Positions 2,068 to 3,346 of a DNA stretch of 64,000 nt are shown here, in pieces. How positions within the stretch are numbered: the first letter of the stretch is position 1; each line of letters opens with the position of its first letter. The notes beneath the pieces were generated by a model. That model was not told the origin of the DNA. It searched no databases and was given only the letters and a program-made list of their open reading frames with translations. The position numbers were made by a program, and so were the translations under genes. Source of the DNA: an uncultured Actinomycetes bacterium (GTDB taxonomy: Bacteria; Actinomycetota; UBA4738; HRBIN12); contig CAVROD010000004.1 of assembly GCA_963722795.1 (NCBI GenBank), forward strand, positions 203,443-267,442, in the 5' to 3' direction.

Positions 2068-2277
2068 ATGCGGCCCATCGTGAATCGAGAACCCTTCACC
2101 GAGGCTCGGCTGAAGACCGTCAATGAGGTCGCAGACCTGTTGCGCGTATCCAGGATGACCGTCTACCGAATGATCAAGACAGGGGAGATGCCCGCCGTGA
2201 GGGTGGGCCGGAGCTATCGGCTCCGTTCCGAAGACGTCGACACCTACCTGACGGAGCGCTACACCGAGGCCGGTTAG
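2068..2277 (+). CDS. helix-turn-helix (excisionase/MerR-like) DNA-binding protein, 69 aa
   Basis: The segment NEVADLLRVSRMTVYRMIKTGEMPAVRVGRSYRL is a typical HTH_17-type excisionase-family fold. Confidence 0.7.
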   Translation: MRPIVNREPFTEARLKTVNEVADLLRVSRMTVYRMIKTGEMPAVRVGRSYRLRSEDVDTYLTERYTEAG

Positions 2278-2341
2278 CCCGGCCCGATCGCTTCCGCGCA
2301 CCGCGCGCTCAGCCGACCTCCGTGGAGAACGGAGGGGGCGC

Positions 2342-3232
2342 ATGAACGAGCACGACCGGCTCGTCGATCGAGCCGCCCGCGACGCACGCACCGTGCTGTT
2401 CGTGGGCGGTCTCGACGCCGGCAAGAGCACGCTGGCGCGCGCGACTGCGGCGTTCGCGCTGCGGCTCGGGCGCACGGTCGCCTACCTCGACGCCGACGTC
2501 GCGCAGAAGACGGTCGGCCCGCCGGCGACCGTGGGGCTCAAGCACATCCGCGAGCCCGACGACCTCACGCTCGATCGCCTCGCTCAGGCCGACGCCCTCG
2601 GGTTCGTCGGTTCCACGAGTCCTCAGGGGCACGTGCTGCCCCTCGTAGGCGCGCTCGCGCGGCTGCGCGACCGAGGGCGCGCCGAGGGCGCCGACCTGGT
2701 CGTCGTCGACACGAGCGCCATGGTGAGCGGCATCTGGGGCCAGCTCGTGAAGTACTACAAGGTCGACATGCTCGAGCCCGACCTCGTGGTGGGCCTGCAG
2801 CGTGGCGAGGAGCTCGAGCCCGTGCTCGGTGTGATCCAACGGTTCTTCGGGGTCGAGCTCGTGACCCTGCCCGTGCATCCCAGCGTGGTGCCCACGAGCG
2901 TCGACCAGCGCTCCGACCAGCGAGAAGGCGCGATGGCGGCCTACTTCCGGGGCGCCCTGCAGCGGTTCCGCGTGAAGCCCACGGTCTTCATGCCTGCGTT
3001 GCCGCCGCTGTTCGACCTGCACGAGCTCGACCGGCTCCTCGTGGGCCTCTCCGACGGCGCCGGAGGGTTCACGGGGCTCGGCTACCTCGAGTACGTGCCC
3101 GAGGACCAAGGCCTGCGGCTGATCTCGCCCGTGGCAGAGCCGCCGAAAGCGCTTAGACTGGGCTCCGTTCGTCTGGAGGACAGCTTCCGCGTGAAGCGTG
3201 TCGACCTCCGGAATCTCTTCGGAACCGAGTGA
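2342..3232 (+). CDS. Clp1/Grc3-family P-loop polynucleotide 5'-kinase-like protein
   Basis: Walker A VLFVGGLDAGKSTLARATAAFALRLGRTVAYLDADVAQKTVGPPATVGL closely parallels the Clp1 signature GKST...RLGR..TY.ELDVGQ. SD GGAGGGGG lies 4 nt upstream of the ATG. Confidence 0.6.
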   Translation: MNEHDRLVDRAARDARTVLFVGGLDAGKSTLARATAAFALRLGRTVAYLDADVAQKTVGPPATVGLKHIREPDDLTLDRLAQADALGFVGSTSPQGHVLPLVGALARLRDRGRAEGADLVVVDTSAMVSGIWGQLVKYYKVDMLEPDLVVGLQRGEELEPVLGVIQRFFGVELVTLPVHPSVVPTSVDQRSDQREGAMAAYFRGALQRFRVKPTVFMPALPPLFDLHELDRLLVGLSDGAGGFTGLGYLEYVPEDQGLRLISPVAEPPKALRLGSVRLEDSFRVKRVDLRNLFGTE

Positions 3233-3244
3233 AAGGGCTCCCGC

Positions 3245-3346
3245 TTGCCGTCGCTGATCAAGAAGCGCCGCAAGAAGATGCGCAAGAAGAAGCACAAGAA
3301 GCTCCTCAAGCGCACGCGGCACCAGCGCATGAAGCTGGGCAAGTAA
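3245..3346 (+). CDS. 30S ribosomal protein bS22 (33 aa; missing from ORF track)
   Basis: TTG start, translating to [33 protein letters not shown] with a TAA stop at 3344-3346. It matches the mycobacterial bS22 pattern [30 protein letters not shown]. It lies in a different frame from the artefactual 5' extension of ORF 3229..4137. Confidence 0.75.
   Translation: [33 protein letters not shown]

Follow-up and report, generated by a model that had tools for sequence, protein, structure and literature searches.

Why would a gene for a predicted RNA 5′-end kinase lie directly beside the gene for a ribosomal protein, and does this adjacency say anything about what the kinase does? The question is raised by a 64,000-nucleotide stretch of DNA (the window) from an uncultured soil Actinomycetes bacterium (GTDB lineage UBA4738; HRBIN12; assembly GCA_963722795.1, contig CAVROD010000004.1, positions 203,443 to 267,442). 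Near its start, a gene for a 296-residue P-loop protein (2342–3232, + strand) stands between a gene for a helix-turn-helix (HTH) protein and a short open reading frame (ORF) for ribosomal protein bS22. A preliminary description had read the P-loop protein as a Clp1-family polynucleotide kinase and its position next to bS22 as a hint of a role in rRNA or tRNA processing or repair. The HTH, P-loop, and small ORFs and the hairpin it reported are all present where it placed them, and the identities it proposed hold; the functional hint is weakened by the results described here. The explanation that we favor, with somewhat better than even confidence, is that a Clp1-family kinase sits inside an older HTH-bS22 pair, its position reflecting inherited gene order, and that the genes are under separate expression controls.

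The kinase ORF contains the sequence GGLDAGKST...RLGRTVAYLDADVAQ and matches the CLP1_P profile (PF16575) over its entire length (positions 1–188 of 188) with a score of 109.1 bits against a cutoff of 26.6 (E = 3.1e-31). Other P-loop families in Pfam matched only with E > 0.003, and the protein did not group with MobB or CobW, the unrelated NTPases that the preliminary description had named as alternatives. The best sequence match in the PDB was human CLP1 (E = 8e-13), aligned through Walker A, the ELDVGQ motif, the clasp, and the lid. Walker A (G22-G-L-D-A-G27-K28-S29) fits the GxxxxGK[ST] consensus, the Walker B/DxDxxQ segment D50-A-D52-V-A-Q55 aligns with ELDVGQ, and the RxxxR lid (R190-S-D-Q-R194) aligns with the RRECR lid region of human CLP1. 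Across 30 homologs, down to 28% identity, Gly22, Gly27, Lys28, Arg190, and Arg194 are invariant, and Asp50, Asp52, Gln55, Asp123, Thr124, and Gly126 are at least 90% conserved.

The predicted fold agrees with this assignment. The AlphaFold model of the kinase has a mean predicted local distance difference test score (pLDDT) of 94.7, and Clp1, Grc3, or NOL9 structures make up the whole of its top 22 Foldseek matches in the PDB (E from 1.7e-17 to 2.8e-08, template modeling (TM) scores of 0.56–0.76); the next tier, beginning at E of about 1e-4, consists of signal recognition particle GTPases. The alignment of the predicted model spans about 300 columns, the C-terminal domain included. The eukaryotic-type N-terminal domain is missing: the kinase domain begins at about residue 15, and the alignment with human CLP1 starts at residue 133 of the latter. 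The architecture is thus that of a kinase domain followed by a Clp1-like C-terminal domain, without the N-terminal domain. Overall, profile, motifs, and predicted fold place the 296-residue protein in the bacterial Clp1 kinase family, already known, as a new representative from Actinobacteria.

One motif is kept only in part. In the clasp (TxGW) region, Asp123 and Thr124 are conserved, the position of the tryptophan is occupied by Glu, Met, Leu, or Val, and Gly126 is replaced by Ala in the window kinase and in 14 other sequences counted. These features raise the alternative that the protein has the Clp1 fold and is not an RNA kinase in vivo, acting instead on DNA ends or a small molecule, or serving as a regulatory NTPase. 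In eukaryotic Clp1 the clasp tryptophan stacks on the 5′ base; moreover, bacterial homologs were formerly annotated as GTPases (PMC6777427), and the Clp1 of Thermus scotoductus (Ts-Clp1) phosphorylates single-stranded DNA as well, at higher enzyme concentration (PMC6777427). We regard this alternative as highly improbable given that the protein keeps both Walker motifs (A and B), the glutamine of DxDxxQ, and the RxxxR lid, that the closest structures are all RNA kinases, and that Ts-Clp1, the only characterized bacterial member, is an ATP-dependent RNA 5′-hydroxyl kinase that prefers single-stranded RNA (PMC6777427). The substituted clasp may mean that the substrate preference of the window kinase differs from that of characterized Clp1 enzymes.

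Bacterial Clp1 proteins have been surveyed once, by Saito et al. (2019; PMC6777427). They found 0.9% of complete bacterial genomes to carry the family, with 0 among 244 Actinobacteria, and described a ‘short N-terminus’ class of bacterial Clp1. Our literature search returned no paper tying Clp1 to Actinobacteria or to bS22. Among 1.84 billion cluster representatives scanned with HMMER, 1,941 matched at E ≤ 1e-3 and 1,296 of these at E ≤ 1e-10; a genome scan with an alignment of 10 sequences as query and one genome per GTDB species found 301 relatives. Close homologs (81–92% identity) all come from metagenomes or metagenome-assembled genomes (MAGs) and carry labels such as ‘polynucleotide 5′-hydroxyl-kinase’ or ‘Clp1/GlmU family protein’. 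The best 80 of the 301 relatives, 65–96% identical to the window kinase, come nearly without exception from MAGs that bear the title Actinomycetota or Actinomycetes bacterium. We refer to the relatives with a window-type Clp1 locus as the clade; counts for the clade rest on these best 80. The catalytic motifs of the kinase hold throughout it.

The second member of the pair is a TTG-initiated ORF of 33 codons (3245–3346) that starts 13 bases past the last base of the kinase stop codon. Its product, in which 18 of 33 residues are Lys or Arg, matches the NCBIfam equivalog model for bS22 (NF047430 ribo_bS22, positions 1–30 of 31) with 44.4 bits against a cutoff of 34, and also the Pfam family COX24_C (E = 1e-8, 35.3 bits against a cutoff of 23). 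The ORF evolves as a coding gene under purifying selection: 70 DNA versions encode only 14 peptides, variable sites are distributed 14/9/27 over the three codon positions, and codon differences are synonymous in 15,581 cases and non-synonymous in 5,780. Homologs are present in every related genome examined. The preliminary description had called the gene unannotated, which is true of some gene callers (L001, L082, and L090), but others do call it, in 187 collection blocks. Start codons in the clade are TTG (51) or GTG (18), and the spacer from the kinase stop to the bS22 start is 12–13 nt. In the window the putative ribosome-binding site, GAAAGGG (3231–3237), overlaps the kinase stop codon, and ‘tgaaagg’ lies right after or overlaps this stop in nearly all clade loci. 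In mycobacteria, bS22 is located in the 30S subunit near h44/h45 (PMC10081302).

How old is the arrangement? Within the clade, the conserved block reads SDR (opposite strand), then PF15698-HTH-Clp1-bS22-lipoprotein hydrolase-SAM_HAT, and in 80 of 81 related loci the next ORF after the kinase gene is bS22; the remaining locus ends before the ORF could appear. Conservation of the HTH-Clp1-bS22 triad extends beyond the clade only in part. Six Clp1 lineages were examined, at 40–49% kinase identity or closer; bS22 lies downstream of the kinase in three of them and is missing there in the others: HTH-Clp1-bS22-SAM_HAT is retained in P0123 (49% identity) and P0137 (40%), whereas P0127 (47%) has PF15698 followed by Clp1 with neither HTH nor bS22, in P0129 (48%) Clp1 stands alone, and P0132 (42%) has Clp1 and SAM_HAT separated by an 8-nt gap. 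More remote Clp1 homologs have unrelated neighbors. In one of these loci (L092, 97–2068), a Clp1 homolog of 32% identity lies directly downstream of a gene for an S4-domain pseudouridine synthase, the only RNA-related neighbor among the distant homologs sampled.

Viewed from bS22, the picture is different. We scanned metagenomes for a DNA pattern that represents IKKRRKRM, the core of bS22 of the ordinary actinobacterial type. The scan returned 120 loci, 117 of them with a bS22 ORF, and Clp1 was present in 0 of the 120. Among the 99 metagenomic bS22 loci with at least 400 nt of upstream sequence, 53 carry a homolog of the window HTH directly upstream of bS22 on the same strand. Four loci (L141, L188, L115, and L148) have PF15698-HTH-bS22 without Clp1, and two of these (L141 and L188) run straight into SAM_HAT, which is the window arrangement minus the kinase. 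Because Clp1 is absent from all 120 loci and the HTH is directly upstream of bS22 in 53 of 99, HTH-bS22 appears to be the older pairing; judged from these gene orders, the pair, and in some lineages the whole PF15698...SAM_HAT block, is older and more widespread than the kinase's presence in it. Clp1 may have been inserted into the block or lost from it. The Rv0500A and Rv0500B genes of Mycobacterium tuberculosis, to go by their names, are presumably neighbors as well. Rv0500A is a characterized DNA-binding repressor (PMC6375644), and Rv0500B is bS22, printed as ‘Rv0550B’ in PMC10081302.

These gene orders bear directly on a functional reading of the locus, in which the kinase is tied to the ribosome: it would phosphorylate 5′-hydroxyl ends arising from rRNA maturation or from toxin-cut rRNA or tRNA, as an analog of Grc3/NOL9 in processing of internal transcribed spacer 2 (ITS2), 5′-phosphate-dependent nucleases or ligases would finish the job, and adjacency to bS22 would reflect co-regulation with ribosome synthesis. 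All 80 informative clade loci, together with two further lineages (49% and 40% kinase identity), have the order HTH-Clp1-bS22, which speaks for it, as do the short spacer between kinase and bS22, a predicted fold that matches Grc3 and NOL9 as well as Clp1, and the distant homolog adjoining the S4/pseudouridine-synthase gene. Nevertheless, we consider this reading unlikely. The position of bS22 is explained by the older HTH-bS22 pairing without Clp1, three Clp1 lineages lack bS22 nearby, and loss of bS22 in Mycobacterium smegmatis causes no growth or global translation defect (PMC10081302). Neither a Las1-like or other nuclease partner nor an RNA ligase was found among the window ORFs scanned. 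Finally, in the clade bS22 apparently has its own promoter inside the kinase gene (see below), suggesting that its expression is uncoupled from that of the kinase. The processing or repair hint of the preliminary description is therefore weakened, because HTH-bS22 adjacency is widespread without Clp1, because PF15698-HTH-bS22-SAM_HAT exists without it, because three orthologous Clp1 lineages have no adjoining bS22, and because of this apparent promoter. The fuller version, in which the Clp1-type kinase is a true ribosome-biogenesis or repair factor, a bacterial counterpart of Grc3/NOL9 co-regulated with small-subunit assembly, is decidedly doubtful.

We now turn to the expression controls that our favored explanation assigns to the inherited block, beginning with the first gene of the triad. 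The HTH protein belongs to the excisionase family (Pfam HTH_17, E = 2e-17; TIGR01764, 71.2 bits against a cutoff of 28.8). It falls below the threshold of the BldC subfamily (NCBIfam NF033787, 21.7 bits against a cutoff of 77) and, by these profile scores, fits the general excisionase-family domain and not the BldC family. A weak resemblance to MAD1, the HTH component of the methylation-associated defense system, was also seen (48 bits in NCBIfam, where the cutoff is 80; PADLOC mad1, E = 3e-9). No further defense components were found nearby, and the resemblance is most likely generic HTH_17 similarity.

The preliminary description had the HTH ORF start at ATG 2068 (2068–2277, 69 residues). 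While its identity as an HTH protein stands, its start most likely lies at GTG 2080 (2080–2277, 65 residues) because ATG 2068 overlaps a conserved candidate −10 box; the HTH proteins of relatives are called as 64–65 residues. This box, which we call P1, is the hexamer TACGAT at 2064–2069. All 53 unique upstream sequences of the clade have a TANNNT hexamer whose first base lies 14–18 nt ahead of the HTH start codon; in relatives it is mostly TACAAT, TACCAT, or TATGAT. We interpret P1 as a candidate promoter on the strength of this conserved spacing, which fits a leaderless or near-leaderless HTH mRNA, probably beginning at or close to GTG 2080.

Between the HTH and kinase genes lies a hairpin (2317–2335) with a perfect 7-bp stem, CCTCCGT (2317–2323) and ACGGAGG (2329–2335), and a GGAGA loop. 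As the preliminary description had noted, it overlaps the kinase ribosome-binding site: the 3′ arm contains the GGAGG element, 6 nt before the kinase start codon, ATG 2342. Folding of this single sequence is not exceptional (z = −0.19). In the clade, the kinase GGAGG ends 3–10 nt before the start and pairs with an upstream CCUCC-type arm, and each of the 72 unique upstream sequences keeps the hairpin, in 36 different stem versions and with loops that range over 3–25 nt, a nested hairpin among them. In a covariance-model alignment, 90.7% of hairpin cells are paired, compared with 48–64% when the partners are slid, and there are 18 double-change cells, compared with 6.1 ± 1.9 in shuffles (0 of 500 reaching the observed number). 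Rfam has no family for the hairpin or the region. We infer from its conservation that the hairpin occludes the kinase ribosome-binding site and would lower translation of the kinase. An intrinsic terminator was considered and rejected, as no U-tract comes after the hairpin and the ribosome-binding site forms its 3′ arm. That it might be an ancestral bS22 leader was likewise rejected, given that it is generally absent upstream of bS22 in loci without Clp1, with the exception of L141. As a more speculative addition to the doubtful ribosome-factor reading, the CCUCC/GGAGG hairpin might mimic the anti-Shine-Dalgarno/Shine-Dalgarno duplex and so sense, for feedback, the supply of ribosomes or of bS22.

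Two loci outside the clade show other signals at this place. In L141, one of the Clp1-less PF15698-HTH-bS22-SAM_HAT loci (bS22 at 871–969 as oriented), a hairpin (CCTTGCCGG...CCGGGCAAGG) lies about 75 nt upstream of the bS22 start, and the bS22 ribosome-binding site, AAGG, is covered by its 3′ arm; an occluded ribosome-binding site in the gene following the HTH may not be unique to the kinase. In L082, from the lineage at 49% identity, the spacer between HTH and Clp1 (about 4935–4965, with Clp1 at 5001) contains a stem and then a T-run (gtccttgaggggacggttttttt), resembling an intrinsic terminator, where the clade has its hairpin over the ribosome-binding site. The bS22 gene of this locus starts with ATG, preceded by a strong AAGGAGG site. 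Lineages with the same gene order thus differ in how its expression is controlled.

The third control element lies within the kinase gene itself. The candidate promoter P2 (3131–3159), on kinase codons 264–273, comprises GTGGCA (3131–3136), a 17-nt spacer, and TAGACT (3154–3159). In 77 of 78 unique sequences its TANNNT hexamer has the same offset, and no other TANNNT is so fixed from 400 nt before the kinase start to 900 nt past the stop. The conservation is at the nucleotide level: CTT (Leu271) and AGA (Arg272) occur without exception (76 of 76 sequences) and GCA (Ala265) is kept in 74 of 76, while elsewhere in clade kinase genes AGA accounts for about 1% of Arg codons and CTT for about 2% of Leu codons, and the Leu and Arg codons next to P2 vary freely. 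The element is absent from all examined Clp1 lineages outside the clade, with or without bS22 downstream. From this pattern of codon constraint we infer that P2 is a promoter for bS22 overprinted on the C-terminal coding sequence of the kinase, with a transcription start near 3166 and a leader of about 78 nt. The predicted leader region (3166–3260) folds no better than shuffled sequences (z = 0.54).

Many Clp1-less loci with a particular bS22 sequence variant have another configuration, in which the bS22 ATG lacks a ribosome-binding site and a TAGNNT- or TAACNT-like hexamer lies about 10 nt upstream (L111–L114, L134, L140, L147, L170, L178, L191, L204, L209, L212, and L217). This spacing suggests a leaderless bS22 mRNA made from its own promoter at these loci.

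Taken together, these elements suggest how the locus could work under the explanation that we favor. P1 would yield a leaderless HTH mRNA running on into the kinase gene, whose translation would stay low with the GGAGG site paired to the upstream CCUCC. Required in ribosome-stoichiometric amounts, bS22 would be transcribed mainly from P2, the element marked by rare synonymous codons, and translated from its own ribosome-binding site overlapping the kinase stop. By homology to Ts-Clp1 and to archaeal and eukaryotic Clp1, the kinase would place the γ-phosphate of ATP on 5′-hydroxyl RNA ends, and cleavage products phosphorylated in this way could enter 5′-monophosphate-dependent decay, trimming, or ligation. 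The location of Clp1 next to bS22 would then reflect inherited gene order and not by itself speak for a ribosomal role.

Several observations weigh against this explanation. The strict conservation of HTH-Clp1-bS22 over 40–96% kinase identity would fit a real functional link as well as inheritance, and the non-conserved clasp tryptophan, together with Ala at Gly126 in the window protein, bears on the enzymatic part, since substrate preference may differ. Because the outer pairs of the hairpin are fixed by the ribosome-binding-site sequence, covariation is limited, being confined to the two inner pairs, and the covariance-model alignment was fitted to the structure and so favors pairing. A consensus promoter and terminator scanner flagged neither P1 nor P2; each hexamer matches 4 of 6 positions, under the scanner's threshold of 9 of 12. 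Finally, the promoter roles of P1 and P2 and the translational role of the hairpin are read solely from conservation.

Might the functional partner of the kinase lie on the other side of the HTH gene? Ahead of the HTH gene, the window has a gene for a PF15698 ‘Phosphatase’ family protein (1153–1977, + strand, 274 residues; Pfam E = 4e-52). Most related loci have it there too, and in the P0127 lineage it immediately precedes Clp1. The invariant residues of the protein are His133, His192, Thr193, His194, Asp214, His215, Asp233, Asn235, Asp236, Asp255, and Asp256. The AlphaFold model is confident (pLDDT 96.9), but Foldseek matches are weak (ribosomal protein uS2 and SIS-type folds, TM of about 0.4). 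No solved relative was found by sequence, a profile search for distant relatives returned mostly the same clade, and a relation to calcineurin-like phosphatases was not detectable in Pfam, PDB sequence, or fold searches. Given the lack of a solved sequence relative and the weak fold matches, the name ‘phosphatase’ is only putative.

Kinase and PF15698 protein could nonetheless form a two-protein RNA end-healing pair, a 5′-kinase with a 2′,3′-cyclic phosphate or 3′-phosphatase, functionally like bacterial Pnkp or T4 Pnk and built from different folds. The presence of PF15698 ahead of the block in most clade loci, its direct junction with Clp1 in P0127 without HTH and bS22, and the invariant His/Asp-rich set, typical of metal-dependent hydrolases, are in keeping with such a pair. 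It is quite unlikely, however: PF15698-HTH-bS22 occurs without Clp1 in the four loci named above, some clade loci as well as P0132 and P0129 have Clp1 without PF15698 nearby, the phosphatase label is itself putative, and no ligase or Hen1 partner was found among the window ORFs scanned.

Downstream of bS22, the block continues on the + strand with a probable lipoprotein of the alpha/beta-hydrolase type (3361–4137; Abhydrolase_1, E = 6e-10), which has a signal-peptide-like N-terminus and a conserved position among relatives, and ends with a gene of the S-adenosylmethionine (SAM) hydroxide adenosyltransferase/(R)-SAM hydrolase family (4154–4939; SAM_HAT_N, E = 3e-52; SAM_HAT_C, E = 4e-16). A 302-residue ORF (3229–4137) was rejected as a gene, being the hydrolase gene over-extended upstream across bS22; the true start is probably GTG 3361, yielding a signal peptide with an LPAC lipobox. 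Also rejected was a 337-residue ORF on the minus strand (2309–3322), antisense to the kinase and typical of high-GC antisense ORFs.

The other window ORFs scanned have respiratory and housekeeping functions, among them Rex, ResB/CcsA, cox1, a CtaA-CtaB ORF, two nuo sets, and polyprenyl synthetase; there is one tRNA. No RNA ligase, RtcB, HEPN nuclease, toxin, or Hen1 was found among the window ORFs scanned (26 by Pfam), nor was a Las1-like or HEPN nuclease partner for the kinase found among its neighbors or these 26. The kinase, PF15698, hydrolase, and SAM_HAT proteins matched no defense-system model in PADLOC. Two separate gene sets for NADH dehydrogenase membrane subunits (NADHdh/NuoH-type and Proton_antipo_M/NuoL,M,N-type) fall within 18 kb (36473–40990 and 46468–53864), which suggests two complex I-like operons side by side. 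Three ORFs have unusual structures: a 915-residue ORF on the minus strand (24530–27277) unites COX15-CtaA and UbiA (CtaB) domains, the cox1 ORF (19201–20370) matches its profile only from position 97, and an ORF at 30553–32547 joins part of a NuoD domain to a NuoE domain behind it. Such structures could be genuine fusions, or else artifacts of long-read assembly that arose from frameshifts or start sites.

Where the published survey found no actinobacterial Clp1, a single scan here points to a large, vertically inherited actinobacterial clade (301 species-level genomes) with a fixed genomic setting and unusually legible expression controls. The kinase, the hairpin, and the candidate rare-codon promoter all offer experimental handles on a 2.3-kb fragment. 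P2, on codons 264–273, would be a clean natural case of synonymous-site constraint imposed by the promoter of a downstream gene, a kind of constraint that bears on codon-usage and selection analyses. The locus also advises caution: function should not be read from adjacency to a ribosomal gene when an older synteny sets that gene's position.

Comparison with known systems places the locus as follows. Like Pnkp/Hen1 and T4 Pnk, it encodes a predicted 5′-hydroxyl polynucleotide kinase beside a putative phosphoesterase; the window kinase, however, is of Clp1 type and not of T4 Pnk type, PF15698 is only a putative phosphatase and is not always adjacent to the kinase, and no ligase or methyltransferase partner is found among the window ORFs scanned. 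With eukaryotic and archaeal Clp1 and Grc3/NOL9 (PDB 8hmy, 4oi0, 2npi, 8puw, and 9dun) the kinase shares its catalytic motifs and a predicted fold (TM of about 0.7), at 15–26% identity, but it lacks the N-terminal domain and the TxGW tryptophan, and no TSEN, Pcf11, or Las1 partner is evident. Ts-Clp1 is likewise a short form without the eukaryotic N-terminal domain, with CLP1_P, Walker A, Walker B, and lid, encoded by a single-copy gene. Unlike Ts-Clp1, the window clade has its kinase, of predicted activity, in a bS22 block with a hairpin at the ribosome-binding site and an apparent embedded promoter, and it consists of MAGs of uncultured Actinomycetota, in contrast to the 244 complete actinobacterial genomes of the survey, none of which has the family. 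As for bS22, the window protein resembles MSMEG_0945 and Rv0500B in being a highly basic protein of 33 residues with an excisionase-type HTH gene upstream on the same strand. What distinguishes the window from other actinobacterial HTH-bS22 pairs, with their Rv0500A-type HTH, is the 296-residue kinase gene that separates the two partners, the TTG or GTG start of bS22 in the clade, and the candidate bS22 promoter inside the kinase coding sequence.

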